From: an uncultured Polaribacter sp.
GTDB lineage: Bacteria; Bacteroidota; Bacteroidia; Flavobacteriales; Flavobacteriaceae
Length of the DNA stretch: 64,000 bases
Direction of reading: 5' to 3'
Assembly: GCA_943788045.1 (NCBI GenBank)
Contig: CALSOT010000005.1
Span: 12,789-76,788 of the forward strand
This document shows positions 2,461 to 41,068 of the stretch, in pieces. The position numbers were made by a program, and so were the translations under genes. The notes beneath the pieces were generated by a model. The model was not told where the DNA came from and did not search any database. It worked only from the letters and a program-made list of their open reading frames with translations. How positions within the stretch are numbered: position 1 is the stretch's first letter; each line of letters opens with the position of its first letter.

Positions 2461-2513
2461 GGGGTGAATAAACAAAAAAAACCGTAGCAAATTAATGTTA
2501 CGGTTTTTTGTAC
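2461..2513. repeat. Left copy of the ~50-bp direct repeat bracketing the PUL block
   Basis: GTGAATAAACAAAAAAAACCGTAGCAAATTAATGTTACGGTTTTTTGTAC (2464-2513) matches 41019-41068 at 49/50 positions by manual alignment, in the same orientation. It contains an A-run/hairpin/T-run terminator-like structure. Confidence 0.85.
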
Positions 2514-3077
2514 ACTCTATTGATTTGTTTTCGAACCTAACCATCGATATATTCAAAAAGTTGACTACGCAAAATTTTTATTAAGACCTCAATCGAAAAA
2601 AATATTCCCAAGAATAAAAGTTATTGTTGGGAATAATATATACACTATATTGACTATTATTGCTGAACCAGACCACTGTTTTATCTTCTATATTTTTAAA
2701 AATAAAATTGCGTTATTTTTTTGGTGTCTAAATTAATAGCTTCAGATATCTCATTTGCTATATCTTTATTTAACTCTTCTATTCTTTTCAGTAGTAATTG
2801 AACTTTCTGAACCAACTTGAAAAGTTTGACAAAAAGTTAAAATTGGAAGTAGAACACAAAAGCTTTATTTATCATGTATCAAATTAAACAATAAAAAGTT
2901 GTTTACAATATTATTTTCCAATAAATAATAAGCAATATTAGGTATTAAGAGTTAAATTTTTGTCAGTATGCGAATCACATGAATAAGTTTATTAATTGAC
3001 ATTTTTTGTACAAATCAGAACATACAAACAAAAAAAAAACAAAAAAATCAACTTATTTTGTATCTAAACTTAACTGT

Positions 3078-4439
3078 ATGAAAAAATTAATTTGTTTAGT
3101 TATTTTCTGTTCTATGACATTAAATATGTCGGCACAAATAAATTCAGAAACAAAGGCTGAAAAAATGGAGCGGATGGAGTGGTGGACAAAAGCGCGCTTT
3201 GGGATGTTTATTCATTGGGGGCTATATTCCTTGCCAGCTAGACATGAGTGGGTAATGAGTAATGAAAAAATGTCAAAAAAAACATATGAAAAATACGCTA
3301 CTTATTTTAACCCGGAGTTATACAACCCAACCCAATGGGCCAAATTAGCCAAAAAAGCAGGGATGAAATATGTAGTTTTTACTGCAAAACATCATGATGG
3401 GTTTACGATGTATGATTCAAAATATACAGATTACAAAGTTACCAACACACCCTACGCAAAAGATGTAATGAGGGAGCTGGTAGATGCTTTTAGAGCAGAA
3501 GGAATTCGGATTGGACTATACTATTCTCTGATTGATTGGCACCATCCTGATTTTTTGGTAAAAGACCCTATTCATCCAGAAAAAAATAATAAAAAAGAAC
3601 TAGCAAAAGACTCAAGTCGAGACCTTAAAAAATTTCAAAAGTATTTAAAAAATCAGTTAACAGAAATCCTTACCAATTACGGACAAATTGATATTTTATT
3701 TACCGATTTTTCTTATCCGCAAAAAGAAGATGGAAAAGGAAAATCATATTGGAATTCAGAAGACTTATATAAACAGATTAGAAAACTTCAACCGCAAATT
3801 ATAATAAATGATCGACTCGATTTAAGAGAGGAAGGTGGCTGGGATTTTATGACGCCCGAACAGTTTATGCCAAAGCAATGGGTTACCTATAATGGAGAAA
3901 AAGTGCCTTGGGAGACTTGTCAAACTTTTTCTGGATATTCCTGGGGTTATCACAGAGATGACCGCTCATGGAAGAGCACAGAACAAACTATTGTCATGCT
4001 GATTGAAACAGTTAGTAAAGGGGGTAATTTATTATTAAATGTGGGGCCAACCGCTAGAGGTGTAATACAATCTGAAGCTGTCGATAGGCTTGAGGCTACA
4101 CACCAATGGATGAAATATCACGATCGTTCTATTTATGGTTGCACAGCTGCGCCTGCGGAGTTTGAAAAACCAGATAATTGTTTATTAACATACAATCCTG
4201 AAACAAATAGGCTTTATGTGCATGTGTTAGAATGGCCGTTTAAAACAATTTATCTTCCTGGCTTAGCCGATAAGGTCGCTTATGCACAAATATTAAATGA
4301 TGGATCAGAACTTAAACTGAAGACAAAAAAAGGAGCTTGGTTGGATGATGTTAAAAATGATGATAATGGCCTAACTATAACAATTCCTGTAACAAAACCA
4401 AATGTAGAAATACCTGTTATTGAAATTTTCTTGAAGTAA
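3078..4439 (+). CDS. GH29 alpha-L-fucosidase, secreted
   Basis: Signal peptide MKKLICLVIFCSMTLNMSAQ. GH29 motifs ARFGMFIHWGLYS and FTAKHHDGFTMYDS. ATG at 3078 is preferred to the non-ATG track start at 3006. Confidence 0.85.
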   Translation: MKKLICLVIFCSMTLNMSAQINSETKAEKMERMEWWTKARFGMFIHWGLYSLPARHEWVMSNEKMSKKTYEKYATYFNPELYNPTQWAKLAKKAGMKYVVFTAKHHDGFTMYDSKYTDYKVTNTPYAKDVMRELVDAFRAEGIRIGLYYSLIDWHHPDFLVKDPIHPEKNNKKELAKDSSRDLKKFQKYLKNQLTEILTNYGQIDILFTDFSYPQKEDGKGKSYWNSEDLYKQIRKLQPQIIINDRLDLREEGGWDFMTPEQFMPKQWVTYNGEKVPWETCQTFSGYSWGYHRDDRSWKSTEQTIVMLIETVSKGGNLLLNVGPTARGVIQSEAVDRLEATHQWMKYHDRSIYGCTAAPAEFEKPDNCLLTYNPETNRLYVHVLEWPFKTIYLPGLADKVAYAQILNDGSELKLKTKKGAWLDDVKNDDNGLTITIPVTKPNVEIPVIEIFLK

Positions 4440-4457
4440 TTTTTATTTCATATTTGT

Positions 4458-5077
4458 ATGAAGAATAGACCTAAAATTATAGTTTGTATTGTTTTATTGA
4501 TTTTCTTGGCATGCATGGATAAAACTTCAAAAAAAAGTGATTTCAAAAGCGGCAATGACAAGCCAAATATCATACTTATTTTAACAGACGATCAAGGCTA
4601 TGGAGATCTAGGCTTTAATGGCTCAAAAGACATTCAAATAATATGATAAAAGGTAATAATGAGTCTATTAGAGATTATTTATTTACAGAAAATTTATGGT
4701 CTACACACTTTGGCAATCCCCGTTGCGAATCTGTTCAAAATAAACAATGGAAATACATTCGTTATTACAAAAATGAGAATATTTATTCTAAAAATGTTAA
4801 GGTAATCGCAAAAGATCACAACATTAATCTTACCAAGTTATTATATGGCAATTAGGATCCTCAAATAGCTGTTTATGAAGAACTATACCATTTAAAAACA
4901 GACCCAAAAGAAAAAAATAATCTAAAAAATAATCTTGATTATAATAAAGAATTAAAAATTATGAGATTGGCATGGAGGGAAAAAATCAATTATGCACGTG
5001 GAGAGGGTAAAGCAAAAATTTTGAGGTACACGATTGACAGTAAATCAGAAAAAGGGAATATTTCGATGCCTGAGTAA
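4458..5077 (+). pseudogene. S1 sulfatase remnant (internal deletion plus in-frame stop)
   Basis: Only the signal peptide and first sulfatase block ([20 protein letters not shown]) remain. They join directly to a sulfatase C-terminal region (WKYIRYY...EELYHLKTDPKEKNNL). The CxPxR active-site region is missing. There is a frame change near 4643 and an in-frame TAG at 4853-4855. Confidence 0.8.
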
Positions 5078-5133
5078 TTATAATTTAGATTAAAATAGCT
5101 ATCAATAACCAAATAATATAAATACTAACAAAA

Positions 5134-7621
5134 ATGATACGAATTCGCATCAAATTTATCTTGCTAATTTGCCTATTTATGGCTTCTTGTATGACCGTTA
5201 CAGAGAACACAGAGCCTGTTAGTTTTAATGAAGGCTGGAAATTTCACAAGGGTGAAGCTAAAAATGCACAATACTTAAGTTTTGATGATTCTAGTTGGCG
5301 AGATCAAAATTTACCACATGATTGGGCCATCGAAGGACCATTTGACATCCAATACAATGCTCGATGCGGAGGATTGCCATTTCATGGTGAGGGTTGGTAC
5401 AGAAAATCTTTTAATGTCTCCTAAAAATCTAAAAGGGAAACACGTAAGCCTTCATTTTGACGGTGCTATGTACAATGCCAAGATATGGCTAAATGGAGTT
5501 TTAATTGGTAATCGACCAAATGGTTATATAGGTTTTTCTGTAAAATTGAGTGAATACCTAAATTATGGTGGGGAAAATCTCATTGCAGTTCAATTAACTC
5601 CAGAAGATTTATCTTCTAGATGGTACCCTGGTGCAGGAATCTATCGAAACACATGGTTAGAAATAAACAACCCTGTTCATGTTCCTAAATGGGGGACATT
5701 CATTACAACCCCAAAAATAACGGATGAATTAGCTAATATTAATATTCAAACAGAAATTGAAAATACCACATCAATAAATAAGATTATTACAATTCAGACT
5801 ATAATTTATTCCAAAGAAAACCAAGAGCTGAGTGCTATTTCTGAAGCTATTTCTGTGAACAAAAATGAAATATCCATTATTAACCAAAGTACCGAAATAG
5901 CAAACCCCAAATTATGGGATTTACAATCACCCTACCTCTACAGAGCTGAGACAAAACTATTTGAAAAAGGGAATTTAATTGACACCTACAATACCACATT
6001 TGGTGTTCGTACAATTAATTATGGAAGTGACTTTGGATTTAAATTGAATGATAAATCTACTAAATTTCAAGGGGTCTGTCTTCATCATGATCTAGGGCCT
6101 TTGGGGACTGCTGTAAATAGAAGAGCAACCGAACGTCAATTAGAAATCATGCAAGATATGGGAGTAAATGCAATTAGAACAAGTCATAATCCTCCATCCC
6201 CAGAACAAGTGCAACTATGCGATGAAATGGGATTGATGATTCAAATAGAGGCATTTGATATGTGGGAAAAACCAAAGGTGGAAAATGGATACAGCAAAGT
6301 TTTTAATGAGTGGCACAAACAAGATTTAAGAGATATGATTCGTGCTTTTAGAAATAGCCCTTCTGTTGTCATGTGGAGTATCGGTAATGAAATTTTAGAA
6401 CAAAGTGATAAAATTAATGGAAAACGTATAGCAAATGAACTAGCAATGATTTGCAAACAGGAAGACCCAACTCGACCTACCACCGCAGGTTTTAATTATT
6501 ATCCAGCCCCAATAAAGAATGGTTTAGCAAGTGCAATAGATCTTGTTGGGTGGAATTACAAGCCAAGAAAATACGCAGAAATTACAGAGCGACATCCAAA
6601 CTGGATAATTTATGGCTCTGAAACATCAAGCACTGTAAGCAGTCGTGGGGTCTATCATTTACCTATAGAAAAATATGAGCTTCATGAATCATTACAAATT
6701 ACAAGTTATGACATAATTGGTCCCCCTTGGGCCTACCCACCTGATATTGAGTTTGAATCTTTAGAAAATAATCCGAATAACTTAGGAGAATTTATTTGGA
6801 CTGGATTTGATTATTTAGGCGAACCAACTCCCTTTGGAGGGAAAGACAACTCAACAAACGGTTACTGGAATGGTGATTGGCCAGCAAGAAGCTCCTACTT
6901 TGGAGCGGTGGATTTGTGTGGTTTACCAAAAGACCGGTTTTATCTTTATCAAAGTCAATGGACTAAAGACCCTATGGTTCATGTACTTCCACATTGGAAT
7001 TGGGAAGGCATGGAAGGAAAAGAGATCCCTGTTTTTTCTTACACCAATTGTGATGAAGTAGAGTTATTTGTCAATGGAAAATCATATGGGAAAAAAATTA
7101 AGGGAATTGACAAAACACCTATTCCAATTAATTTTATTGATTGGGAAGGTGGCAGATACCAAGGCGATTTCATGTCTCCCTATCGATTGCATTGGAAAGT
7201 TCCATATCAAGCAGGCGAACTTAAAGTTGTAGGTTACATTGATGGAAAAAAAGTTACAGAAAAACAAATAAAAACTGCAGGAAAACCTGCTAAAATAGAA
7301 CTCATTGCAGATCGTAACCAAATCAAATCGGATGGCGAAGATATGGTATTTGTAACCGCACGTGTAGTAGATAAGGAGGGTAATTTGTGTCCAAATTCAG
7401 ACAATCTCATAGAGTTTGAGATTGAAGGGGAAGGCGATATAGTAGCTGTAGGAAATGGTAATGCAGCGACCACAGAGTCATTTCAATCAAGTAAGCGCAA
7501 AGCTTTTAACGGCCAGTGTATGGTCTTTATCAAAGCATCTAAGCAGCCTGGATACATAAATTTAAAAGCAAGATCAGAGGGGCTTGCTAAACAACAAGTT
7601 CAAGTTCAAACAAAAAAATAA
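5134..7621 (+). pseudogene. GH2 family glycosidase (beta-galactosidase-like) interrupted by a frameshift near 5400-5424
   Basis: The N-terminal 96-aa ORF (signal peptide, FNEGWKF, LPHDWAIEGPF, GWYRKSFNVS*) continues in another frame as SPKNLKGKHVSLHFDGAMYNAKIWLNG... with NAIRTSHNPPSPE and WSIGNE. This is either a true frameshift or a sequencing error. Confidence 0.75.
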
Positions 7622-7634: not shown

Positions 7635-10600
7635 TTAGGTTTGTTTCTTTTTTTTGATGAACTCTGTAGGGGTCATTTTAAACAAAACTTTAAAAGATTG
7701 TGAGAAATAAGAAGGAGTATTAAATCCTGTTTTGTACATGCACTCTTTAACACTATAGCCTTTTGATAAAAATTGTGCTGCTAATTTCAATCTATAATTT
7801 CTTAAAAACTCAGTTGGCTTTAGCCCTGTAATTGATTTTACTTTATTAAAAAAAGAGGTTCTACTCATTCCGTTAAGATTGGAAAACTCTTGGACGGTAA
7901 AACTTGAGTTATCAATATTATCTTTTATGATGTTAATGATATTTTCAACAAAAACTTCATCCAGTGATGAAATATTAACTTTTGAAGGTTCAAAATTGAG
8001 GTTTTTAAATTCATTATGTGTCATTTTTCGGTTATTCAACAAAGAGGTCAATTGTGTTTTCAAAACTTCGAGACTAAAAGGTTTTGTCAAATAAACATCC
8101 GCACCAGATTTTAAACCTTCAATTTTAGATTCATCATTGGCTCGAGCCGAAAGCAAAATAATTGGAATATGACTTGTTTTTATGTTATTCTTTAGGGTTT
8201 TAGATACTTCAATTCCGCTGGTGCCGGGCATCATAATATCGCTAATTATAATATCGGGAAGTTTTTCTAAAGCTAATTCAATACCTTGCTTACCGTCGGT
8301 GCTGCCCATAGTCAAATAATGCTGACTAAGCTCTGAGGTTAAATAATGGTATATTTCGAGATTATCTTCAATAATTAGCAAACTCGGCTTATCCTTGAGA
8401 TTAGAATGATCTTTTTGTTGCTGATTAATTAGATCTAAATTATCATGATGATCCACCTTAGAAATAATAATTTCATTATTTTCGATCATCTGCTCGTTTG
8501 TTAAATGTGTATTCCCTAAAGGAAGCAAAAGTGTAAAACAACTCCCTTTTTGATACTGGCTCATCACTTTAATCTCTCCACCATGAAGCTTAGCTAGATT
8601 CTGAGAAAATGAAAGCCCAATTCCAAAACCTTCATTTTTTTTATTTTGATTATCAGATTGATAAAAGCGATTAAAAATAGTATTTACATCAGATGATTTA
8701 ATTCCTATCCCATTATCTTCTACATATATTTCAATATGCCCTTCTGGATAATTAGATTTTTGGAGATTAAGCTCTCGCATGCCTATAGTAATGCTTCCAC
8801 CTTTTGGAGTGAATTTTATAGCATTTGAAAGTAAGTTGTGGATAATTTTTTCGATGATATTAGCGTCTGTCCATGCAAATATCTTTTTCTCATTGAAATT
8901 ATATCCTAAATTAAGTTTTTCTTGTTCAGCCTTGGTTTGGAACTGCTCTGTTACTTTTTGTATTAAGTTAACCAAATTAATGTGAGTACATTTTAATTTG
9001 ATTTCCCCCTGTTCTAATTTCCTAAAATCTAAAAGTTGTTTTATCAATGCTAGAAGATAATCAGAATTGCGCTGCATGGTTTTGTAAAGCCTAATTCTTT
9101 CTTTTTTCTGAAGCTTATCACCTTGTTTTATTAACTTTTCGGCAGGGCCCAAAATAAGAGTTAATGGAGATCTAAGCTCATGAGATATGTTGGTGAAAAA
9201 CTCTAATTTTACTTTATTAATTTCTTTTTCTTTTTCTTTTTCTAGTCGATTAAATTCTAGTTTTCTTTTTCTTTTAATCTGAATAATGAAAATCCTTGTT
9301 AGAAGGTAAATTATAAGTAAAAAAGATAGAAGATATAATGTTTTTGCCCCTAATGTAAAATACCAGGGTGGTAATAAGGTGAGGTGTACTTTTGCTGGTT
9401 TTTCAGACCAAACGCCTTTATTATTGCTTCCGTATACTTTAAACACATAATCGCCGGGTTTTATGTTGGTATACTTAGCAACACGAAAGTCGGAGTTAGT
9501 TGCTATCCAGTTTTCATCAAAGCCTTCTAGAATATATTTATATTTATTAAATTCAGAATCATTAAAATGAAGAGATGAAAAACTAAATGAGAAATTATTG
9601 ATATTGGCATCCAAGGTGATGTGGTCTGTATGAGCTATACTTTGATCTAAAATTATTTTACCGTCAATTTCCTCAAGAGGCTTTACCGTCTCATACAGAA
9701 TACTAAAATCAGTGATCAAAATTCGAGGAGGAATATTACTTTTTTTGTTTGATAATGAAGAAAATACATTGATTCCATTTACCCCACCAAAGACTAACTC
9801 TCCATTTTTTCTTTTCAAGGCCGAAATTTCACTCATCTCTGGGTTTTGAAGCTCATTTGTTGAATACGTCTCAAAGCTTTCTTTTTTCGGATCAAACCTT
9901 ACCAAACCTGTATTAGTACCTACCCATAAAAAACCGTTGTCATCCTCTTGTATAGAGTTAATAACATCATTAGGGAATTGCTTGTTTTGGGTGTTGTATC
10001 GCTTAAACCCAATGACACTTAGCTCTTTATTTCTAATTAATTTATTAAGCCCACCACCGATTGTACCGATCCATAGGGTTTTATTTGTGCTTTCAAAAAT
10101 TTGTAGGGTATAATCGCTTCCAATGCTATTATCATTGGAAGGATCAAATCTGAAAGAATTAAAATAACTTTTAGTAATATCTGTACTATTTTCAATTAAT
10201 TTATTTAAACCATTGTTGGTAGTAATCCAAAGAACTCCAGTGGCATCTCTGTATATGTCTCTAATAATTTTTCCTGGAAATTGAATTTTTTTATCGTCAG
10301 GATTTATAAATGAAAAATACGGCTTGCTTTCTGGTGTATCCCACTCTGCTAGCCCAAGGCCAGATCCATAGTACCCAATCCATAACCTATTTTTACCCTC
10401 ACTAAATATGGAATGAATTGCTAAGGTTTTTACATTACTACCATCATTAACAGGATTGTTAAATTTTTCAAATTTGAAATCTTTTGATGTATCGTTTTTA
10501 TTAATAAACAATTTATTTAATCCACCATTCTCAGTCGAAAACCATAAAATAGAGTGATTTTTATCAATAATATTTTCAGAAATTGAAAAAATATTGTTAG

Positions 10601-11810
10601 ACGTTAAGCCATTTTCATTATTGGAAAAAGTAAATGACTCAAATGTATTGTAATTGGGGTTTGATTTTGATAAGAAGTTTAAACCTCCAAGCTCTGTACC
10701 AATCCATAAGTTTCCAAACTGATCTTCGTGTAAACTTCTAATTTTATTACTACTTAAACTCCCCTTGTAATTTTTTTTTCTAAAATGATTAAATTGATAG
10801 TCACTATTTGTTTTTTTATAGATTCCTCCCCCATTAGAACCAACCCATAAATTACCTGTATTGTCAACAAACAAACAATTGATTGAATTATTTTTAAGAC
10901 CTACAAATTCTAATTTTTCAAAATCAATAGTGTTTACAACAAGAGCCTCTCCGTTTTTGGAAACACTAGAAAGCTTTTCATCAATCACACACCACAAATT
11001 ATTATTGCGATCCAGAACACCAAAACGATTTGATAGTTTATTTATATTTTTAGTGAGGCTTAATTTACTATTGTATTTGTAAATAATTTTATCTCTATGA
11101 AGTTCCCAAACTTTACCATTAGGCCCTGAAATCTGCGAAATAAAATTTGTGTTTTTTGTTGGAGCAAAATTAAGAGCGGAGATTTTACCGTCAATTATTG
11201 TGTAATTTAATAAATATAAAACTTGAGAATTTAAAAAAAACACATCCTTCTGTTTTATCAAAATTCTATTTCCCAATTTTTCAACTGGGTTTTCTATATC
11301 TTCAGTCAAAAGAACATGAAATTCCATTTCATCTACATTCTCTTTAAGAACAGCATAGCATGTTTTTTGTTTAAACTGAACCCATAAAATCCCATCATCG
11401 GATATCGTTACATCATTTACATAATTTCCAAATTGACTTAGTTTTTCACTAAAGTTAAAAAAAGTTTCTTTTTCTAAGTTATAATAGTTCAATCCACCAT
11501 CCAAAGAGGCAATCCAAAGGTTGCCATAATAATCTGACTCAATTTGCTGGATGATTCTCCCTGAGATACTAGATCTAGTCTTTTTTGAGGGTCTAAAAAC
11601 CTTGAAATTATAGCCATCATATTTATTAAGACCATCATTAGTTCCAAACCACATGAATCCATCCTTATCTTGAATAATACAATTTACGTCATGTTGTGAT
11701 AAACCATCTGCTGAATTGAAATTCTTAAAAATTAATTCCTCATTAAATACAACGCTAGATGATAAGGATAAAATTAAAAATAGCAGCCCTACTTTATATA
11801 GGTGTCTCAT
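7635..11810 (-). CDS. Hybrid two-component system regulator (periplasmic beta-propeller sensor, histidine kinase, receiver, AraC-type HTH)
   Basis: Repeated GLNxL/WIGT propeller motifs and one TM segment. H-box FTNISHELRSPLT, N-box LLSNAIKFTPKGG, DNGIGI and GFGIGLS. Receiver LLIIEDN...ISDIMMPG. C-terminal AraC HTH (GFNTPSYFSQSFK). ATG at 11810 (MRHLYKVGLLFLIL) is preferred. Confidence 0.9.
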   Translation of the reverse strand: MRHLYKVGLLFLILSLSSSVVFNEELIFKNFNSADGLSQHDVNCIIQDKDGFMWFGTNDGLNKYDGYNFKVFRPSKKTRSSISGRIIQQIESDYYGNLWIASLDGGLNYYNLEKETFFNFSEKLSQFGNYVNDVTISDDGILWVQFKQKTCYAVLKENVDEMEFHVLLTEDIENPVEKLGNRILIKQKDVFFLNSQVLYLLNYTIIDGKISALNFAPTKNTNFISQISGPNGKVWELHRDKIIYKYNSKLSLTKNINKLSNRFGVLDRNNNLWCVIDEKLSSVSKNGEALVVNTIDFEKLEFVGLKNNSINCLFVDNTGNLWVGSNGGGIYKKTNSDYQFNHFRKKNYKGSLSSNKIRSLHEDQFGNLWIGTELGGLNFLSKSNPNYNTFESFTFSNNENGLTSNNIFSISENIIDKNHSILWFSTENGGLNKLFINKNDTSKDFKFEKFNNPVNDGSNVKTLAIHSIFSEGKNRLWIGYYGSGLGLAEWDTPESKPYFSFINPDDKKIQFPGKIIRDIYRDATGVLWITTNNGLNKLIENSTDITKSYFNSFRFDPSNDNSIGSDYTLQIFESTNKTLWIGTIGGGLNKLIRNKELSVIGFKRYNTQNKQFPNDVINSIQEDDNGFLWVGTNTGLVRFDPKKESFETYSTNELQNPEMSEISALKRKNGELVFGGVNGINVFSSLSNKKSNIPPRILITDFSILYETVKPLEEIDGKIILDQSIAHTDHITLDANINNFSFSFSSLHFNDSEFNKYKYILEGFDENWIATNSDFRVAKYTNIKPGDYVFKVYGSNNKGVWSEKPAKVHLTLLPPWYFTLGAKTLYLLSFLLIIYLLTRIFIIQIKRKRKLEFNRLEKEKEKEINKVKLEFFTNISHELRSPLTLILGPAEKLIKQGDKLQKKERIRLYKTMQRNSDYLLALIKQLLDFRKLEQGEIKLKCTHINLVNLIQKVTEQFQTKAEQEKLNLGYNFNEKKIFAWTDANIIEKIIHNLLSNAIKFTPKGGSITIGMRELNLQKSNYPEGHIEIYVEDNGIGIKSSDVNTIFNRFYQSDNQNKKNEGFGIGLSFSQNLAKLHGGEIKVMSQYQKGSCFTLLLPLGNTHLTNEQMIENNEIIISKVDHHDNLDLINQQQKDHSNLKDKPSLLIIEDNLEIYHYLTSELSQHYLTMGSTDGKQGIELALEKLPDIIISDIMMPGTSGIEVSKTLKNNIKTSHIPIILLSARANDESKIEGLKSGADVYLTKPFSLEVLKTQLTSLLNNRKMTHNEFKNLNFEPSKVNISSLDEVFVENIINIIKDNIDNSSFTVQEFSNLNGMSRTSFFNKVKSITGLKPTEFLRNYRLKLAAQFLSKGYSVKECMYKTGFNTPSYFSQSFKVLFKMTPTEFIKKKKQT

Positions 11811-11965
11811 AATATATAATTCAATTTTAAAATTAAACACTAAACTTACAAATAAATATATTTATCATTAGCATATATTGACATATGTGATATATTTTAA
11901 CCCATTTAAGCAAAATAGAAATAAATAGTTGCATTAACTTTAAAATGAATTAAATCTTTACTTTG

Positions 11966-28324: not shown

Positions 28325-28394
28325 TTAGCTATTTAACACGGTGTCTAATGAATAACTTTTAAATTCACTAATTTTAAAATTAAATACAAAAATT

Positions 28395-29501: not shown

Positions 29502-30413
29502 ATGAAACTATGTATCAGCTTTTGTATGTGTGTTTTTATCTGGGGAAATGCCCAAGACAAAATAGTTCTTTATCCGGAGGGCATTCCATGTAACAGCAGT
29601 GAAACGACTATTGAACCAGTAAGAATAAAAAAAATAAACCACCAAATAGCTAACCCTCAATTGTGGTATTATGCAGTAGCCGTTTCTAAAAAGGAAGTTC
29701 CTGCAATTCTGGTAATTCCAGGAGGTGGCTACAAAAACTTGGCTTTTGAACACGAGGGCATTAAGGTAGCAAAATGGTTAAATCAAATAGGTATTAGTGC
29801 ATTTGTACTAATGTATCGAAGCCCATATTGGGAGCCTAAACCCTGTAAAAGTAAAGTTGCTTTGTTAGATGCGCAGCGTGCTATGCGTGTAATTCGTCAA
29901 AGGGCAAGCCAATGGAATATAGAGGCGTCTAAAATTGGTGTCATGGGATTTTCAGCGGGCGGACATCTAGCAGCATCACTTTCTACTCAGTTTGATCTTG
30001 GTAAAGCAGCTAAAGAAAACCAACTCGAAAAATTAAGTTCTCGCCCCAATTTTAGTATACTCATATATCCTGTTATTAGTATGCGAAAGGAGCTCACCCA
30101 TATGGGTTCTCGAAAGAGTCTATTGGGGGGGAATCCAACCAAAGACCAAATAATTCTTTATTCAAATGAGTTACAAGTCAAATCGGACACACCTACAACA
30201 ATACTGATTCACGCCAAGGACGATAGTGTAGTCATCCCCAAAAATAGTATACTCTACCACGAGGCGTTACAGGAAAATAAAATTCCTTCAACACTTCACC
30301 TTATGGAGCAAGGCGGTCATGGTTTTGGAATATCCTCTACAAATAAGTCAACACAATTATGGTTAGCACTTGCAAAAAATTGGTTGATTCAACTTGGTAT
30401 AATCGCTGATTAA
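29502..30413 (+). CDS. Alpha/beta-hydrolase fold esterase
   Basis: Signal peptide, oxyanion-region IPGGGY, nucleophile elbow GFSAGGHLA, later HAKDDSVV and GGHGF. Confidence 0.7.
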   Translation: MKLCISFCMCVFIWGNAQDKIVLYPEGIPCNSSETTIEPVRIKKINHQIANPQLWYYAVAVSKKEVPAILVIPGGGYKNLAFEHEGIKVAKWLNQIGISAFVLMYRSPYWEPKPCKSKVALLDAQRAMRVIRQRASQWNIEASKIGVMGFSAGGHLAASLSTQFDLGKAAKENQLEKLSSRPNFSILIYPVISMRKELTHMGSRKSLLGGNPTKDQIILYSNELQVKSDTPTTILIHAKDDSVVIPKNSILYHEALQENKIPSTLHLMEQGGHGFGISSTNKSTQLWLALAKNWLIQLGIIAD

Positions 30414-33455: not shown

Positions 33456-34772
33456 TTAAAATAGATTAATTTGAATGATGGTTGCTATATCATCAATTTC
33501 ATCCTCAGGAATAGAAAACTTAATCCTATTGAAATTTGTACTAAAATCAATTGATTTTTTAGATTTTAATAAAATAACAGATTCAATCTTTAGGTTCTTG
33601 TTAGGAATTTCAAATGTCTTATTGTCCGAACCTATAAAATGAATAAATATTTTATTTTTCTTCATTGTTGATACCATTGAATCTGATGGTGGAAATGGAC
33701 CTGTATCTGTTCCATAAATGGCATCTCCATTTTGTTTTAACCAATCCCCAACTTCCTTAAGAGTGACAATATGTTCGTATTGAATCTGACCATTGGGCAT
33801 TGGACCTACATTGAGTAAAAAATTACTGCCATACCCAGCTGAAATAATAAGATCTTTAATTATCCTTTTGGCAGATTTGTGTTTATTGGCCTTATATTTA
33901 AATCCCCAATAACCATTAATTGTTTCGCAAACCTCTAGAGGTAAATTAGTACTTACCTCACCATATACAGTGCCGAAACCAGTAGTGTTTTTGCCAGGGA
34001 AATCCCTTTCAAACATTTGAAAATCCTCACCCCATTTCGGACTTTGGTGATGATTATTCCCAATCAAACAACTTGGTTGTAATTGATGAATTAATTCGTA
34101 GATCTCATCATAGTGCCAATTTGCATCTTTTTTATCCCAATGTCCATCTAGCCAAATACCTGCAATTGGGCCATAATTTGTTAACAGTTCTTTTAACTGT
34201 TTTTTCATAAATTCAATATAATCTCCCCAATTACCTTCAGCCCTACCGGTAATTCCCTTGCCTGTTTTACCTCTTGGAAAATAATCATCTCGATACCAAT
34301 CTAATAAGGAATAATAAAAAAACAATTTAATTCCCTCAGATTCACAGGCCTCCGATAATTCTTTCAAAATGTCTTTTTTGTAAGGTGTTTTACTAACTAT
34401 ATTATAATCACTAGCCTTTGAATTAAACATCGAAAATCCATCATGATGTCTACTAGTAATTGTAATATATTTCATTCCCGCATTTTTTGCTGTTTTAACC
34501 CATTGATATGCATCAAACTCTGTTGGATTAAATAGTGAAGGTAATATTTCGTAAGTATCCTTTGGAATATTTTTTTTGTTCATTACCCACTCACCATCAC
34601 CCAAAATACTGTATACACCCCAATGAATAAAAAGTCCAAATCTTGCAGTCTCAAACCATTTTCGAGCTACTAAATTTTCTTCACTTGGTATATATTTTTT
34701 AATTTCATTTTGTGCAGTACTGTATAGTGAAATACATAAAGTAACGAATAAAAAAAAAGCTCTTTTGTTCAT
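33456..34772 (-). CDS. GH29 alpha-L-fucosidase, secreted
   Basis: Signal peptide. GH29 motifs ARFGLFIHWGVYS and ITSRHHDGFSMFNS. Confidence 0.85.
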   Translation of the reverse strand: MNKRAFFLFVTLCISLYSTAQNEIKKYIPSEENLVARKWFETARFGLFIHWGVYSILGDGEWVMNKKNIPKDTYEILPSLFNPTEFDAYQWVKTAKNAGMKYITITSRHHDGFSMFNSKASDYNIVSKTPYKKDILKELSEACESEGIKLFFYYSLLDWYRDDYFPRGKTGKGITGRAEGNWGDYIEFMKKQLKELLTNYGPIAGIWLDGHWDKKDANWHYDEIYELIHQLQPSCLIGNNHHQSPKWGEDFQMFERDFPGKNTTGFGTVYGEVSTNLPLEVCETINGYWGFKYKANKHKSAKRIIKDLIISAGYGSNFLLNVGPMPNGQIQYEHIVTLKEVGDWLKQNGDAIYGTDTGPFPPSDSMVSTMKKNKIFIHFIGSDNKTFEIPNKNLKIESVILLKSKKSIDFSTNFNRIKFSIPEDEIDDIATIIQINLF

Positions 34773-34790: not shown

Positions 34791-35936
34791 CTAAATTAAG
34801 TTCTTTGTTAAATCATTTACTTCAGCACAGCTCATTTGTTCCATAACTTGCGTTAATTGAGTTTTAAGCATGGCTATGGTGTGATTTCCACCTTTTTTCC
34901 CCAAAGCCGAAACTCCATACATAAAAGTACGCCCCATAAAACTAAAGTCAGCACCGCTTGCCATGACTCGTGCTACATCGGCACCACCCCGAATACCACT
35001 ATCCATCATTACTTTGATTTTATCTTTATATAGTGGGACAATGCTATTTAAGGAATCTATTGTGGCCTGGCCTACATCTACTTGTCTTCCGCCATGATTA
35101 GATATAATAACTCCATCAAGCCCGAGTTGGTAGGCTTTTTCAACATCATGTATAGACTCTGCACCTTTCAATACTAATTTTCCTTTCCAAAGGTCTCGAA
35201 TACGCTTTATTTTATCTTCATTTAAACGACCAGAAAACGTTGCATCCATAAATTTAGCTAATTGATTTAAATTCAGGTTTTTTTGCATGTAGGGCTTTAA
35301 TATTTCAAAGCTTGGTTGTCCATTAATTAGAGTGTTTAGCGCCCAATGAGGCCGTTTCATTGCAGATAAAATGTTTGAAACTGTCATTTTTGGTGGCATC
35401 GATAAGCCGTTGCGTATATCCCGTGGGCGATAGCCAAAGGAAGGAACATCGGCCAAAATAATAAGGACAGGACAATGTGCGGCTTCTGCTCTTTTCAAGA
35501 GATCTTTTGTTACACGTTCTTCGGCAGGATGGTATAACTGGAACCATGCGCGGCCTTCTGTTATTTCGGCAATGGACTCTATACTAGCTGTTGTAACCGT
35601 ACTCAATACAAATGGAATATTGTGGTCAAATGCGGCTTTTGCTAATATTTCGGGCGACTTTGGCCACATGAGACCTTGTAACCCTACTGGTGAAATACCA
35701 AAAGGAGCGTCATATTCGTGGCCAAAAAGCTCAGTCTTTAGATTTGGAGGCGTGTAATCGACCAGGTATTTTGGCTTGAGTTCTACGTCTCTTATACGAG
35801 AAGTGTTTTTTTTCAAGTTTACATCGTTATTACATCCACCGTCTAAGTATTCAAATGCAAATTTTGGAATTTTAGCCTTGGCTCGAATTCGTAAATCATC
35901 AACTGAAGGATACTTGTAATTTATTTGTTGTTTCAT
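34791..35936 (-). CDS. FMN-dependent alpha-hydroxy-acid dehydrogenase (L-lactate dehydrogenase-like)
   Basis: Family motifs VLKG...ISNHGGRQVD and DSGIRGGADV. About 380 aa, as for LldD/glycolate oxidase family members. Confidence 0.8.
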   Translation of the reverse strand: MKQQINYKYPSVDDLRIRAKAKIPKFAFEYLDGGCNNDVNLKKNTSRIRDVELKPKYLVDYTPPNLKTELFGHEYDAPFGISPVGLQGLMWPKSPEILAKAAFDHNIPFVLSTVTTASIESIAEITEGRAWFQLYHPAEERVTKDLLKRAEAAHCPVLIILADVPSFGYRPRDIRNGLSMPPKMTVSNILSAMKRPHWALNTLINGQPSFEILKPYMQKNLNLNQLAKFMDATFSGRLNEDKIKRIRDLWKGKLVLKGAESIHDVEKAYQLGLDGVIISNHGGRQVDVGQATIDSLNSIVPLYKDKIKVMMDSGIRGGADVARVMASGADFSFMGRTFMYGVSALGKKGGNHTIAMLKTQLTQVMEQMSCAEVNDLTKNLI

Positions 35937-35942
35937 ATGTTT

Positions 35943-36410
35943 CTATGCATTTAAATCATAAATTTTGTCCATCAAAACCCATTTCTCGTTTGGATTAATG
36001 TTGGGAAGCGCTTGTTGGAAACTCCACATCAATGCTTCCCAATTCCATATTGTACATCCTTTCTTAGCAAATAGTCATCATTTTCTGCATGAACGATATG
36101 ACGAACCCCTTTAAACAGAGAGTTAGATGCATAATATTCAAGACGCTCTTCTAAATTGTTGGACGTGAGATCTACCCAGCCTACCACGCCCTTTATAAAC
36201 GGGTTTTTATCGGCACATTGCAACAGAAATTCTGTTTCGGTCAGATTGGTCAGCTTGAACTGCTATGCAGCCATCAATAGTATTGGCTTTTATAATCGGC
36301 AAGAAATCTTTGGGAAGAAAATCCTTTCTAATGGCATGCATAGAAGTATCTATCCATGCATCTCTCACTGGATCATAATTCCAAAAATATTGATGACTAT
36401 CTATGATCAT
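35943..36410 (-). pseudogene. Amidohydrolase_2-family lactonase (L-fucono-1,5-lactonase-like) remnant
   Basis: The N-terminus MIIDSHQYFWNYDP..IAVQADQS shifts frame near 36225-36245 into ETEFLLQCADKNPFIKGVVGWVDL...GVRHIVHAENDDYLL. It then stops at 36029. A short third-frame tail follows (..NPNEKWVLMDKIYDLNA*). Only ~470 bp remain, versus the ~870 bp I expect for this family. Confidence 0.7.
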
Positions 36411-37261
36411 TTATATGATTTACATACTTGGCGGGAAACACCTAAATGTTCAATCCCTAATTCAACAATATCACCATTCTTTAAGTATTTTGGGGGTGTT
36501 AATCCAAGCCCAACACCAAAAGGGGTGCCCGTAGAAATAACATCGCCAGGGAGTAAAGTCATAAACTGACTAATATAACTCACTACATGCTGAATATTAA
36601 AAATAAAGTCTGAGGTACTGCTATTTTGCATAATTTCGCCATTGAGTTTCAACCAAAGATTTAAATTATTGGGGTCTGTAATTTCATCTTTTGTTGCAAT
36701 AAAAGGACCAAGGGGAGCAAAAGTATCACAGCTTTTTCCTTTAACCCATTGTCCTGAACGTTCTATTTGAAAGGCACGTTCACTTACATCATTATGTAAA
36801 ACATAACCAGCTATATGATTCATGGCGTTTTTTTCACTTACATAGGAAGCTTTCTTTCCAATTACAACAGCGAGTTCAACTTCCCAATCTGTCTTGGTGC
36901 TATTTTTAGGAATTATAATATCATCAAAGGGTCCTACAATAGCAGAAGTTGCTTTAAAAAAGAGTACAGGTTCTTGAGGGACATCCATTCCACTTTCGGC
37001 AGCGTGTTTGGCATAGTTAAGTCCAACACAAACAACTTTAGAGGGTCGTGCAAGTGGTGCACCTAATCGGATTGTATCTTCCACAATTGGACATAAATCT
37101 TGATTTTTATTTAACCAATTTTGTAGTTTTTCTATTCCCTCATTACCAAAAAAATCTTCATTGTAGTCAGATACAAATGCAGATACATCTAACTTCGTTC
37201 CATTGGGCAACAAAACCCCTGGTTTTTCTTTATTAATAGTTCCAAATCTAATAAGTTTCAT
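36407..37261 (-). CDS. Fumarylacetoacetate hydrolase-family enzyme (candidate 2,4-diketo-3-deoxy-L-fuconate hydrolase)
   Basis: FAH-family motifs KVVCVGLNYAKHAAESG and GDVISTGTPFGVG. The specific function is inferred from context. Confidence 0.7.
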   Translation of the reverse strand: MKLIRFGTINKEKPGVLLPNGTKLDVSAFVSDYNEDFFGNEGIEKLQNWLNKNQDLCPIVEDTIRLGAPLARPSKVVCVGLNYAKHAAESGMDVPQEPVLFFKATSAIVGPFDDIIIPKNSTKTDWEVELAVVIGKKASYVSEKNAMNHIAGYVLHNDVSERAFQIERSGQWVKGKSCDTFAPLGPFIATKDEITDPNNLNLWLKLNGEIMQNSSTSDFIFNIQHVVSYISQFMTLLPGDVISTGTPFGVGLGLTPPKYLKNGDIVELGIEHLGVSRQVCKSYK

Positions 37262-37267
37262 TTATTT

Positions 37268-38053
37268 TTATTTTGAGTTAAGTGTGACATAGCCGCCATC
37301 AATTCCATAGTTAGAGCCTGTAATAAAGCTAGATTCGTTAGAACACAAGAATAATGCTAAATCTGCTATTTCTTGTGGAATTCCCATCCGACCAATAGGT
37401 TGGGTTTTTGATAAATTTTCAAACATTTCCGATTCTTTTCCTGGATAGTTTTCTTTAATAAAGCCATCAACAAATGGCGTGTGCACTCTAGCCGGAGAAA
37501 TACAGTTACAACGAATATTGTGGTTAATATAATCCTTTGCTATAGAATAGGTCATTGTTAATACCGCTCCTTTTGTCATAGAATAGGCAAAACGATCTGA
37601 AAGACCAACAGAAGAGGCAATGGACGCTAGGTTTAAAATCACTCCGCTATTTTGAGTTTTCATTAATGAAATACAAGCTTTCGTACAATTGAAAACCCCT
37701 TTGATGTTTATATTGTATAATCTATCTAAATCTTCCTCCTTACAGGTTTCAATATTTCCCACATGCGCTATGCCTGCGTTATTAACTAAAATATCGACTG
37801 AGGTATGAGATGATATATTTGAAATTATATCTGAAACTTGTTGAAAATTTGCGACATCGCAGTAATAGGCAGTAGCTAAAAAACCCTTCGTCTTAATGGC
37901 TTGAACGACTTCTGAGGCAGATTGTAAATCATAATCTAAAATATGTACATGAGCTCCTTGTTGAGAAAATGTTTCAGCAATGGCTTTGCCTATACCGCCA
38001 CCGCCTCCTGTAATGATGGCGCTTTTATTCTTTAAAGAAAATTTTGTTTTCAT
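37268..38053 (-). CDS. Short-chain dehydrogenase/reductase (candidate 2-keto-3-deoxy-L-fuconate dehydrogenase)
   Basis: TGGGGGIGKAIA cofactor motif, NNAGI, catalytic YSMTKGAV (YxxxK). The specific function is inferred from context. Confidence 0.7.
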   Translation of the reverse strand: MKTKFSLKNKSAIITGGGGGIGKAIAETFSQQGAHVHILDYDLQSASEVVQAIKTKGFLATAYYCDVANFQQVSDIISNISSHTSVDILVNNAGIAHVGNIETCKEEDLDRLYNINIKGVFNCTKACISLMKTQNSGVILNLASIASSVGLSDRFAYSMTKGAVLTMTYSIAKDYINHNIRCNCISPARVHTPFVDGFIKENYPGKESEMFENLSKTQPIGRMGIPQEIADLALFLCSNESSFITGSNYGIDGGYVTLNSK

Positions 38054-38063
38054 ATATCTAAAT

Positions 38064-39734
38064 TTATAAAGATAAGCCTCGTTTCCAAGGAATAAAATCG
38101 TTTTGGTCTAATCTTCGTGCATGTGGTTGTATGGTTCCACTTGCTACTTTTATGATAAACTCAAGTAGTGCTTTACCACAATCTTCTATGGTATCTGTAC
38201 CTTCAATAATAGTACCTGTATTAAAGTCTATAATATCGTTCATTTTATTATACAGCTTAGTGTTCGTGGATACCTTTATAACGGGTACAGCTGGATTGCC
38301 TGTAGGCGTTCCAAGTCCTGTTGTGAATAAAATCAAATTAGCTCCTGAACCCGCTAGGCCTGTAGTCGATTCTACATCATTCCCGGGGGTACATAATAGG
38401 TTTAAACCGGGTTTTATTAACTGTTCTGTGTAATCCAACACATCAACTATTGGCGAAGTACCTCCTTTTTTTGCAGCACCAGCAGACTTTATAGCGTCTG
38501 TAATAAGACCATCTTTTATATTTCCAGGGGATGGATTTGCATGAAATCCTGCACCCAAAGCGGTTGCTTTAGTGTTATAGACCTCCATGATTTCGGCAAA
38601 TTTCTGTGCTTTATCAATATCAACACAGCGTTTGATAAGTTCTTGTTCGACGCCATTTAGCTCTGGAAATTCAGAAAGGATTGCAGAGCCTCCTAGCCCA
38701 ACAATTATATCTGAAATATAGCCTAAGGTTGGATTGGCAGAAATACCAGAAAACCCGTCTGAGCCACCACATTCTAAGCCGAGTGTTAATTTATTTAAAG
38801 GTGCAGGAGCTCTTGAAACTTTATTGGCTTGAATCAAACCAGTAAATGTTTTTTTTATTGCATCTGCCAAGAATTCTGGTTCAGATTTGCTTTGTTGTTG
38901 TTCTAAAAAATAAATTGGCTTTTTAATATTTGGAGCGATGCGTTGTAGAGCCTTTTCTACAAGCTTAATCTGAGCATGTTGACAGCCTAAACTCAAAACT
39001 GTTGCTCCAGCAATATTTGGATTATTAATGTAACCTGCCAATAAATTACAAAGTGTAATTGCATCAGAAGTAGCCCCACCACAACCTCCATCATGAGTTA
39101 AAAAATAAATTCCGTCAACATTAGAAAACAAGGGCTTATTTTTGTTATTATGACTACTTTTTATTAAATCTACTTCCAGAAGTTCATGTTCTGAAGCTCC
39201 AGAATTATATTTATGAATAAGCTCATCTAAATGATAGGTATCTTTAGCTGACTTCTCGTAACCAAATTTATCTAACATGGTTTTTTTCAGAATTTCAACA
39301 TTTCTATTTTGACAAAAAACTAGTGGAATGACTAACCAATTGTTCTCAGTGCCAACAGCACCATTATCTCTGTGATATCCTAAAAATTTACGGTTCAAAA
39401 AATCAGAAAAATTAGGAGCTTCCCATTTAATTTGCTCTTTTAATTTTGGAATTTCATAAGATTCGGTTTTATGAGAAATATTTAAGGTTGTTATGGATTC
39501 CCCTTTTTTAATTTCTTTAATTGCTTTTCCAACAACTACCCCATACATGAAAATAGAATCTCCTATATTTAAATTATCAATTGAAAATTTATGTTTTGAA
39601 GCAACATTGCTTACAAGTTGACATTTACTGTCACCAATTTGAATTGTTAATCCCTTACTTAAATCACACAAAGCAACTACTACGTTATCCCTAGAATGGA
39701 TTTTTAATATTTGTGTACTGCTTTTTGAGATCAT
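38064..39734 (-). CDS. UxaA/altronate dehydratase-family sugar-acid dehydratase (candidate L-fuconate dehydratase)
   Basis: 556 aa with an N-terminal SAF-like domain and a central THDGGCGG-type motif, the length and architecture of the UxaA family. It is the first gene of the minus-strand catabolic cluster. Confidence 0.75.
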   Translation of the reverse strand: MISKSSTQILKIHSRDNVVVALCDLSKGLTIQIGDSKCQLVSNVASKHKFSIDNLNIGDSIFMYGVVVGKAIKEIKKGESITTLNISHKTESYEIPKLKEQIKWEAPNFSDFLNRKFLGYHRDNGAVGTENNWLVIPLVFCQNRNVEILKKTMLDKFGYEKSAKDTYHLDELIHKYNSGASEHELLEVDLIKSSHNNKNKPLFSNVDGIYFLTHDGGCGGATSDAITLCNLLAGYINNPNIAGATVLSLGCQHAQIKLVEKALQRIAPNIKKPIYFLEQQQSKSEPEFLADAIKKTFTGLIQANKVSRAPAPLNKLTLGLECGGSDGFSGISANPTLGYISDIIVGLGGSAILSEFPELNGVEQELIKRCVDIDKAQKFAEIMEVYNTKATALGAGFHANPSPGNIKDGLITDAIKSAGAAKKGGTSPIVDVLDYTEQLIKPGLNLLCTPGNDVESTTGLAGSGANLILFTTGLGTPTGNPAVPVIKVSTNTKLYNKMNDIIDFNTGTIIEGTDTIEDCGKALLEFIIKVASGTIQPHARRLDQNDFIPWKRGLSL

Positions 39735-39874: not shown

Positions 39875-39912
39875 ATTAAAATCGATCTTCAGCGATTATT
39901 TTCGATTTTAAT
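39875..39912. promoter_or_regulatory. Perfect 11-bp inverted repeat upstream of the catabolic cluster (operator or terminator candidate)
   Basis: ATTAAAATCGA (39875-39885) and TCGATTTTAAT (39902-39912) are exact reverse complements separated by 16 bp, about 140 bp upstream of the dehydratase start. Confidence 0.3.
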
Positions 39913-40042
39913 AGCCTTTAACCAATTCTCGTCTTTGTTTTTTTATACTGATTCTTTGTTCTCCTTACTTTTTTGAGCTTGCTTTATTGGCGACAAAAGT
40001 TTGTCCATATCACTTAAAATAATTGCTTTCATTTTTATTTGT

Positions 40043-40291
40043 TTAGTTTCTAATTATTAATAATTCTTCTTTTAGCTCAAAATAAATATCATAAACGTAA
40101 TTAATCTGAACCACGTCCCCATTATCATCTATTTTAGGTTCTGCTTTATGTATGGCATCAAAATCAAATCCATGACTCTTTAATATTTGATGGGTAATAC
40201 CACCTAAATCTAAAGTGCTTAACTTCTTTAATACTTTATAATTCCTGCGCATAGCCTTGTCCATCGCTAATAAATCAGCTTCATCAACCAT
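40043..40291 (-). CDS. Hypothetical 82-aa protein
   Basis: ATG-initiated ORF with no motif I recognise. It lies where the N-terminal half of the adjacent recombinase should be. Confidence 0.3.
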   Translation of the reverse strand: MVDEADLLAMDKAMRRNYKVLKKLSTLDLGGITHQILKSHGFDFDAIHKAEPKIDDNGDVVQINYVYDIYFELKEELLIIRN

Positions 40292-40295
40292 CTTT

Positions 40296-41022
40296 TTTAT
40301 ACACGAGCCGATCGTGACAAAAGCGCTTTTTTATAAAGTCCAAACCATTATTGATGGAGGTAAAAATCAACTTAAAGTAGCACACAAGAAAATAAATCCT
40401 AAATATCCGCTAAAAGATTTTGATTTATGTCCCAAGTGTCACTGCCCCCTGCTCGCTAGCGCTTCAAAAGGCCGTTCTAAATACTACGCTTATTACCACT
40501 GTGTAAAACCGTGTAATACAAGATACAAACTTGAAGATGCAGAACTTTGGTTTAACGCATTCCTAGACGGAATTAACTTAAATAAAAATGCACAAAGGTT
40601 ACTCAATACGATGATTACAGAAAGAATAAAAACACAAAGTGAATCTCAAAAAGTTGGACCTAGTCACTAAAAAAAATAAAGGATATGGAAGACAGACTTG
40701 ATAAAGTGCAAGATTTATTTGTAGATGGTGTTATCGATGCAGATGATTTTCATAAAACAAAAAACAGATATCAAAATAGTTGAGAAGAGATGAAAACAAA
40801 AGGTGAACAATGCAATAAACAATCTGAAATCATCGAAACCTACAAGAAAGGATTAAGCAAACTATAAGATATCAATAACCTATTCAATAAAGCAAAATCA
40901 ATGATAAAAGACAACTAATTGGTTCTATATTTCCAGAAAAATTTCAATTTGAAAAAAATAAAGTTCGAACCGCTGATATTAACCCAATACTTTTAAAAAT
41001 TGCTAGTGTAAACAAGGAGTGA
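40296..41022 (+). pseudogene. Large serine recombinase, C-terminal remnant with multiple stops and frameshifts
   Basis: HEPIVTKALFYKVQ, the zinc-ribbon region CPKCHCPLLASASKGRSKYYAYYHC, then a coiled-coil region broken by stops. The final segment QLIGSIFPEKFQFEKNKVRTADINPILLKIASVNKE* is in a different frame. The N-terminal catalytic domain is absent. Confidence 0.75.
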
Positions 41023-41068
41023 ATAAACAAAAAAAACCGTAACAAATTAATGTTACGGTTTTTTGTAC
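41016..41068. repeat. Right copy of the direct repeat; doubles as the tRNA-Leu terminator
   Basis: Matches 2461-2513. On the minus strand it is a hairpin (CCGTAAC...GTTACGG) followed by a T8 run directly after the tRNA-Leu 3' end. It overlaps the recombinase remnant stop codon and the last 3 nt of the tRNA. Confidence 0.85.

Follow-up and report, generated by a model that had tools for sequence, protein, structure and literature searches.

The window analysed here is a 64,000-nucleotide (nt) stretch of contig CALSOT010000005.1 (positions 12,789 to 76,788) from an uncultured Polaribacter sp., in which a polysaccharide utilization locus (PUL) lies between two copies of a 50-nt direct repeat, the right-hand copy adjoining an intact tRNA-Leu(UAA) gene (Table 1). 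A search for direct repeats identified a 60-nt pair in the same orientation with 92 % identity (2454-2513 and 41009-41068), within which a 50-mer, GTGAATAAACAAAAAAAACCGTA[G/A]CAAATTAATGTTACGGTTTTTTGTAC, is identical at 49 of 50 positions between 2464-2513 and 41019-41068, the sole difference being 2487G versus 41042A. This agrees with an earlier note made from the sequence alone, although the overlap of the right copy with tRNA-Leu, there given as 3 nt, is 4 nt by the ARAGORN coordinates, which place the right junction (41068) that far inside the 3′ end of the intact tRNA. The copies are spaced 38,555 nt apart from start to start and are the only two in the window at up to three mismatches, where none were expected (100 shuffles). 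Folded on the tRNA-Leu strand the repeat forms a 14-bp hairpin followed by U8, with a folding energy of -17.0 kcal/mol for the right copy (z = -5.5) and -12.7 kcal/mol for the left copy. A simple terminator scan did not flag the left copy, though folding shows its hairpin clearly; this is likely due to the flanking A and T runs, which may pair and so lengthen the stem past the T tail. The sequence following GTAC at the left copy was considered as a degenerate tRNA 3′ end and rejected, its T-loop-like TTCGAACC lying, by eye, 5 nt out of register.

Using Pfam scans of all open reading frames (ORFs) of at least 90 amino acids (aa) between the repeats, we identified an adjacent SusC/SusD pair together with carbohydrate-active enzymes and a regulator, the combination by which a PUL is recognised. 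Positions 3078-39734 constitute a complete PUL for a fucose-containing glycan, which is probably sulfated and acetylated. Paralogous stretches of ~95-160 nt, 72-75 % identical and spaced ~2.5 kb apart, occur in the GH86-like genes (18358-24187), and others of 150-300 nt, 83-86 % identical at a spacing of ~3.9 kb, in the genes with type IX secretion system (T9SS) tails (22878-28533), which points to tandem gene duplications inside the cargo. The same scans detected no conjugation, mobilisation, replication or phage genes between the repeats. Lacking conjugation and mobilisation genes (relaxase, coupling protein, Tra), the island does not classify as an integrative and conjugative element (ICE) or an integrative and mobilizable element (IME), nor does it classify as a prophage, as it holds no phage genes and neither the hairpin nor relatives of the recombinase described below were found in viral contigs (IMG/VR). 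The genes to the right of the island are sodA (SodA, WP_297804114.1), fbp, an aspartate-kinase-like gene, tig, clpP, clpX and dnaG. GC content is 34.2 % in the island versus 31.0 % in this core flank, and GC at third codon positions is 25.7 % versus 20.1 % (Mann-Whitney p = 1.8e-5), so that the comparison of composition suggested in the earlier note separates the two, if only by a modest shift.

Table 1. Positions of the features of the locus within the 64,000-nt window
Feature	Position	Strand	Basis or remark
Tyrosine integrase, intact, 385 aa	619-1776		PF00589, E = 1.4e-39; left of tRNA-Asp
tRNA-Asp	2116-2190	+	ARAGORN
Native spacer, tRNA-Asp to tRNA-Leu terminator	2191-2463	.	Outside the island; kept in the empty-site allele
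Left repeat copy	2464-2513	+	Hairpin of the native tRNA-Leu terminator followed by GTAC; host arm at the left junction
P' far-end motif ACTCTATTGATTTGTTTTCGAACC	2514-2541	+	Starts directly after GTAC
Mini-element, ~130 nt	2514-2643	+	P' motif, spacer, hairpin ATATTCCCAAG..TTGGGAATAAT, ATAC
Second P'-like motif ACTATATTGACTATTATTGCTGAACC	2644-2669	+	Sequence comparison
GH29 fucosidases (two)	3078-4439, 33456-34772		Pfam
GH2	5282-7621		Pfam
Hybrid two-component regulator	7635-11840		Pfam
SusC	11963-15076		Pfam
SusD	15097-16740		Pfam
Two proteins with porphyranase-type domains	18358-20172, 20141-24187		Pfam
GDSL, CE2 and BD-FAE esterases; T9SS-tail proteins	within cargo		Pfam
Sulfatase	30410-31945		Pfam
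Four-gene sugar-acid catabolic block (FMN-dependent dehydrogenase, FAH-family hydrolase, SDR, altronate/galactarate-dehydratase-like)	34791-39734		Pfam
orf82, ~82 aa, function not assigned	40043-40291	-	No Pfam hit; accompanies the recombinase in relatives
Decayed large serine recombinase	40299-41022	+	Three-frame translation, tblastn
Right repeat copy	41019-41068	+	Between recombinase 3′ end and tRNA-Leu; acts as tRNA-Leu terminator
tRNA-Leu(UAA), intact, presumed integration target	41065-41151	-	ARAGORN
tRNA-Gly(GCC)	41170-41242	-	ARAGORN

Occupied and empty alleles of the locus

To locate further copies of the repeat we used its hairpin core, ACCGTARCAAATTAATGTTACGGT, as a query against a metagenome collection. 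The seven loci that matched all proved to be this locus, either at tRNA-Leu or at the left junction of the island, and the 50-mer is therefore not a dispersed repeat of the kind the earlier note had named as a possible refutation. Two of the matches represent the right junction (L115 and L119) and one the left junction (L117), while in the unoccupied contigs L116, L118, L120 and L114 the left-copy sequence is joined to tRNA-Leu. L116 (a 74-kb contig) and L118 (from a 296-kb contig), which come from separate assemblies, both display an empty site in which sequence aligning to window 1952-2513 (L116 6297-6858 and L118 9-570; 93.4 % identity) continues straight into that of 41019-41404 (94.8 % identity), the 50-mer being present once. 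The two contigs have tRNA-Asp, tRNA-Leu and tRNA-Gly next to one another, tRNA-Asp and tRNA-Leu being convergent and 319 nt apart, which is the single-repeat arrangement that the earlier note had predicted for an empty site. The single hairpin at the empty site identifies it as the native Polaribacter tRNA-Leu terminator, and the comparison indicates that 38,555 bp, one repeat copy included, were inserted exactly between this terminator and tRNA-Leu, which supports the earlier proposal that the insertion took place in the 3′ flank of tRNA-Leu and has a copy of the native terminator at each end.

The flanks of the empty site are about 93-96 % identical to the window, and L116 further differs in lacking the tyrosine integrase and in carrying an extra outer-membrane protein gene between tRNA-Gly and sodA. 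This ~5 % divergence and the structural differences of L116 argue that the empty-site contigs are not assembly collapses of an occupied genome. In L120 ~1 kb of other sequence separates tRNA-Asp from the same terminator hairpin and tRNA-Leu, the 50-mer is present once and there is no recombinase, and in the relative L114 (82 % identity) the hairpin again adjoins tRNA-Leu without a recombinase, next to a different left flank. No empty site was found within the same population, all 10 contigs with an identical SodA carrying the island. Polaribacter tangerinus (L097) and another uncultured Polaribacter (L098) have no tRNAs beside sodA and are unusable as empty sites; there a purF-like gene, PfkB and sufE come right after sodA, which suggests that the tRNA-Gly/tRNA-Leu/tRNA-Asp cluster beside sodA is a lineage-specific arrangement. 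For a complete fucose-glycan PUL of an abundant Polaribacter population, the locus offers a clean comparison of an occupied with an empty site.

Recombinase remnant and element ends

The gene that ends at the right border is the remnant of a large serine recombinase (LSR) corresponding to residues ~244-497 of a protein of ~500 aa (probably the zinc ribbon, coiled coil and C-terminal part), split over three frames with internal stops, and its stop codon TGA (41020-41022) falls within the right repeat copy. When seven intact relatives were compared with the window by tblastn they matched only from their residue ~228/244 onward. Pfam detected no Resolvase domain in the window copy, from which the catalytic N-terminal domain is deleted, while the intact relatives carry Resolvase (PF00239, E = 1.6e-25), Recombinase and Zn_ribbon_recom domains. 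Neither the remnant ORF (40257-40670) nor the three-frame composite gave a significant Pfam hit, the joined remnant returning only a weak match to the end of PF07508 (E = 0.029), and the family assignment therefore rests on homologues: proteins that have full-length relatives with PF07508 and PF13408 align to the remnant at 51-81 % aa identity, and a C-x2-C...C-x3-C motif is visible in its translation. With its catalytic domain missing the recombinase gene is dead and the island accordingly immobilised, as the earlier note had supposed. The deletion joins recombinase residue ~244 to a small gene on the opposite strand, orf82, homologues of which were found by tblastn in L016 (75 % aa identity at 911-1150; called gene 884-1129) and L019 (38 % at 7286-7504), in each case upstream of the recombinase and on the opposite strand, so that at least three elements including that of the window carry it. 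orf82 may encode a directionality factor or regulator.

A scan for the recombinase family, which is a family of the Flavobacteriaceae, taking one genome per species and using a trimmed alignment as query, returned 80 loci. In 60 of these the recombinase gene and a tRNA on the opposite strand face each other with their 3′ ends 20-120 nt apart, the tRNAs being Val-UAC (21), Leu-UAA (17), Leu-CAA (8), Met (8) and six others (Leu-UAG, Leu-GAG, Ser, Arg). The gap between gene and tRNA nearly always consists of a conserved hairpin (AAAAAAGGGACAAATC-loop-GATTTGTCCC) and a few bases. Since the hairpin goes with the recombinase irrespective of the neighbouring tRNA, it is part of the element, and a crossover to the left of the hairpin was ruled out on the same ground. 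In Yeosuana marina a similar remnant abuts tRNA-Leu(UAA)/tRNA-Gly, there beside mutS and not sodA. Some protein C-termini retrieved in the homologue search read into tRNA-Leu ('VLKAGLEPAR'), and certain intact recombinase ORFs (L021 8918-10525, L030 8918-10525 and others) have no stop before the tRNA and read through the hairpin (as NKKRDKSKKNDLS) into the tRNA gene; the C-terminal tail of such a protein would differ between the integrated and the excised state. In five other genomes a family recombinase at tRNA-Leu is immediately preceded by PUL genes (SusC, hybrid regulator, GH29); the recombinase is intact in L019 and L036 and a remnant in L066, L083 and L094, and in L066 (Aestuariivivens marinum) a GH29 gene is directly beside the remnant. 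This recurrence in at least five other genomes suggests that PULs are regular cargo of the family.

At the opposite border of the island a far-end motif, here termed P', starts directly after GTAC. Its consensus, ATTGA[GT][CT]T[AG]TTTTCGAAAC, has one match in the window, at 2519-2537 with one mismatch, and P' also follows a hairpin and GTAC/GTAG in L021, L071, L068, L070, L081 and L090. A more diverged version occupies the same position in L016 and L065 (by eye; three mismatches in L065), and in P0002 the motif is visible at the protein level; in all, P' after hairpin and GTAC was seen in more than 8 loci besides the window. With P' at the left and the recombinase 3′ end at the right, positions 2514-41018 have an element end on each side. 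A canonical intact element of ~7.2 kb is represented by L021/L071, its cargo comprising TPR and SPFH genes without conjugation or mobilisation genes. Its left junction consists of a native-type hairpin, TATGTGTAC and P', and its right junction of the intact recombinase, the family hairpin, GTTGTGTAC and tRNA-Leu. The two junctions share only 7 nt, TGTGTAC, which suggests that the crossover would be at or next to GTAC, that is, the discriminator base and first acceptor-stem pair of the tRNA. The junctions of the window, in contrast, share 49 of 50 nt and do not show the identity restricted to a short core that marks canonical serine attL/attR pairs, so the earlier suggestion that the 50-bp repeat is an att pair describes something atypical for this LSR family. 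As a lead only, judged by eye and not by a tool count, CTTGAACC in the tRNA-side arm stands ~5 bp nearer GTAC than TTCGAACC of the P' arm. A shift of ~5 bp distinguishes attB from attP half-sites of large serine integrases.

The first ~130 nt of the island resemble a unit of their own, ending in a hairpin and ATAC, and align with ~110-nt mini-elements in L070, L090 and L061. A second P'-like motif (Table 1) follows at once and probably marks where the PUL-carrying unit proper starts on the left. Mini-elements of 110-130 nt, composed of P', a spacer, a hairpin ATAT(T/C)CCCAA..TTG(A/G)GGATAAT and (C)GTAC/GTAG, were located in L070 (124-235 and 238 onward), L090 (~10177-10290), L061 (9917-9997) and L068 (3915-3962), and stand in tandem at recombinase junctions of different genomes; in L068 and L070 such junctions form arrays. 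They look like non-autonomous derivatives, similar to miniature inverted-repeat transposable elements, that would be moved in trans by the serine recombinase.

Origin of the island and of its borders

Taken together, these comparisons make it probable that 2514-41018 is a decayed LSR-type integrative island at tRNA-Leu, or a short tandem array made up of the mini-element and a PUL-carrying unit. Under the proposed mechanism the recombinase gene of the family would lie at one element end and be transcribed outward, followed by the hairpin and the crossover region (GTAC for tRNA-Leu), with the conserved ~25-nt P' motif at the opposite end. Insertion would land between the tRNA and its native terminator, leaving the tRNA intact and supplying the element hairpin as the new terminator. 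Here the target would be tRNA-Leu(UAA) of Polaribacter and the left repeat copy would be the original terminator, now displaced. It is the right copy that departs from this scheme, as it stands where relatives have the family hairpin GGGACAAATC..GATTTGTCCC. The closest remnant relatives, P0006 (81 % aa identity) and P0030, retain the family hairpin, which indicates that the right-copy hairpin of the window is a replacement. Homology to the family ends at ...AACAAGG, where the repeat begins, and at this recombinase/repeat junction a microhomology, AAGGGG, is common to the recombinase 3′ end (L119 variant) and the native flank. Since exchange at GTAC would never link the host left arm to the recombinase gene, a step that is not site-specific is required, and three routes would fit: a microhomology-mediated aberrant excision may have captured the Polaribacter terminator, with subsequent re-integration through the terminator (by the recombinase or RecA), or the right junction may have been repaired or copied after integration, either from the left junction or from an incoming empty-site allele. 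The left flank (2226-2463) has no similarity to the recombinase gene beyond the repeat, so that a tandem duplication of the element and a later large deletion, though possible, are unsupported.

A number of points weigh against the reading of the island as an LSR-type element. Identity over 50 nt at the junctions is unexpected for a serine recombinase and unseen in the canonical relative, so that at least one extra, unobserved event must be assumed, and the PUL could have been added inside a resident element, separately from the element ends. Both ends could be identified in just one canonical element, and the crossover position is deduced from junction comparisons. None of the seven metagenome hairpin matches is a circle junction, and neither an excised circle nor an active copy was seen among them. 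As the empty-site lineage is ~5 % diverged, the difference might instead reflect a precise loss of the island in that lineage; the element-type ends favour a gain in the lineage of the window.

The tyrosine integrase to the left of tRNA-Asp belongs to a separate hypervariable island, the right end of which lies ~165 nt upstream of tRNA-Asp. The module of integrase and tRNA-Asp (window ~500-2190) is constant within one population, the DNA to the left of the integrase occurs in at least eight variants in one metagenome series with the break at window ~496-505, and homology of the empty-site contig starts at window 1952, so that the integrase is absent there. The module is visible in loci L011, L012, L099-L105 and L112. 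Most large contigs carry, right after the 3′ end of tRNA-Asp, a second PUL of ~26 kb (L101 1-9554; L106-L111 1-9190) that rejoins the window sequence at ~2258-2265. It encodes a 57-aa tyrosine-integrase fragment, a hybrid regulator, a T9SS protein, SusC, GH2, GH3, SDR, uxuA, uxaC, MFS and a PfkB truncated to 98 aa, is absent from the window and from L102, L112 and L113, and its presence or absence is not bounded by the 50-mer. The stem of the tRNA-Asp terminator differs between alleles with and without this second PUL. The 319-nt spacer between the two convergent tRNAs has thus taken independent PUL islands at each of them and now measures 39-65 kb.

That the tyrosine integrase integrated the island, the 50-nt repeat being the classical att core of attP and attB, was implied by the earlier note, which placed recombination genes at both borders. 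The serine recombinase remnant does end inside the right repeat, as stated there; the tyrosine integrase is not a border gene. The gene is intact, is present in the occupied lineage and absent from empty-site contig L116, and tyrosine integrases typically leave a long identical core on both sides of an island that adjoins a tRNA (IME review PMC5704250). However it lies outside the insertion, beyond tRNA-Asp and 273 nt of native spacer, with its own variable DNA to the left (at least eight flanks in one population) and, in most contigs, with the ~26-kb second PUL between it and the island. The island ends bear serine-family hallmarks (P' motif and recombinase 3′ end), only 4 nt of the tRNA are included in the repeat, and an origin through this integrase is very improbable, the borders pointing instead to the LSR family that targets tRNA 3′ ends. 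Scarcely credible is an explanation of the 50-mer as a generic repeated terminator or a chance duplication unrelated to the arrival of the PUL. The repeat is a good bidirectional intrinsic-terminator hairpin and such sequences can recur in a genome, yet the window holds exactly two copies where none are expected, every exact match to the hairpin core (seven of seven) falls at tRNA-Leu or the left junction with none in viral contigs, and the single copy of the empty-site allele stands exactly at the insertion point.

More serious, though unlikely, is a composite origin, in which a small LSR element or array at tRNA-Leu received the PUL later by homologous or illegitimate recombination and the recombinase never mobilised it, the repeat possibly arising from a RecA-dependent Campbell-type insertion of a terminator-carrying circle. 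Arrays and remnants are common at such sites (L068, L070 and the mini-element of the window), the deletion fusing orf82 to recombinase residue ~244 shows that the region was rearranged, the last 2 kb have a GC content (0.297) below that of the PUL, and the repeat spans exactly the interval from the AAGGGG microhomology to GTAC, as a single crossover within a shared 50 nt would give. Against this, none of the sequence between the repeats is present in the empty-site allele, no intermediate with the element and without the PUL appears among the seven metagenome loci, and PUL genes stand beside family recombinases in at least five other genomes. Returning to the LSR-type island, a wider reading, which we put forward tentatively and regard as possible though short of probable, is that the remnant marks an undescribed and widespread LSR family of marine and freshwater Flavobacteriaceae that would target the extreme 3′ ends of tRNAs (Leu, Val, Met, Ser, Arg) through conserved hairpin, GTAC and P' sites, with 110-130-nt non-autonomous mini-elements, tandem arrays and whole PULs as regular cargo, which would make it a vehicle for exchanging glycan-degradation loci without conjugation. 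If true, the 50-nt repeat would demonstrate that the terminator of a host tRNA can be taken over by such elements to serve as an att arm of theirs.

Comparison with known systems

PULs decide which algal glycans marine Flavobacteriia consume during blooms, and their movement among marine strains is far less documented than in gut Bacteroides, where ICEs are known vehicles. A search of a literature library found no paper combining serine recombinase, PUL, tRNA and Flavobacteri*. LSRs with defined and conserved tRNA targets might also serve as integration tools for Bacteroidota. Among described elements, IMEs with serine recombinases have very short repeats and insert within genes, and tRNA 3′ ends are listed as targets of tyrosine integrases, such as that of NBU1 of Bacteroides at tRNA-Leu (PMC5704250). 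The island shares with NBU1-type tRNA islands a target at the tRNA-Leu 3′ end, an intact tRNA, flanking direct repeats, an empty site in relatives and a recombinase gene at the border by the tRNA. It differs in having an LSR in place of a tyrosine integrase, in a repeat formed by the downstream terminator (with 4 nt of the tRNA) in place of a 3′ segment of the tRNA, and in the lack of mobilisation genes. The Resolvase, Recombinase and zinc-ribbon set of the relatives, the position of the recombinase gene by the att site and the 7-nt junction identity of the canonical relative are all as in phiC31, Bxb1 and Tn4451/TnpX. Unlike known serine-recombinase IMEs, however, the family abuts tRNA 3′ ends and the element in the window is flanked by 50 nt of duplicated host sequence.

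Tycheposons of Prochlorococcus are tRNA-targeted cargo elements with tandem arrays and remnants, 27 of 937 of which encode an LSR (10.1101/2020.12.28.424599). The likeness extends to cargo elements at tRNAs, islands built by successive integration, degenerate remnants, tandem junctions and a minority with an LSR, although tycheposons belong to another phylum and another recombinase family, are for the most part served by tyrosine recombinases and flanked by partial tRNA copies, and in many cases carry replication genes, whereas the window has no partial tRNA copy, no replication module and a 37-kb PUL as cargo. The porphyran and carrageenan ICEs of gut Bacteroides carry PUL cargo beside a tRNA within 16-21-bp repeats (10.1101/2020.06.09.142968), and like them the island is a whole algal-glycan PUL beside a tRNA, its limits being drawn from direct repeats and from the corresponding empty site; in contrast to them it has no transfer genes, belongs to another recombinase class and resides in a marine Polaribacter. 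A tRNA-linked PUL island is therefore a known kind of thing, while the recombinase family, the site architecture, the mini-elements and the captured 50-nt terminator appear to be new variants.

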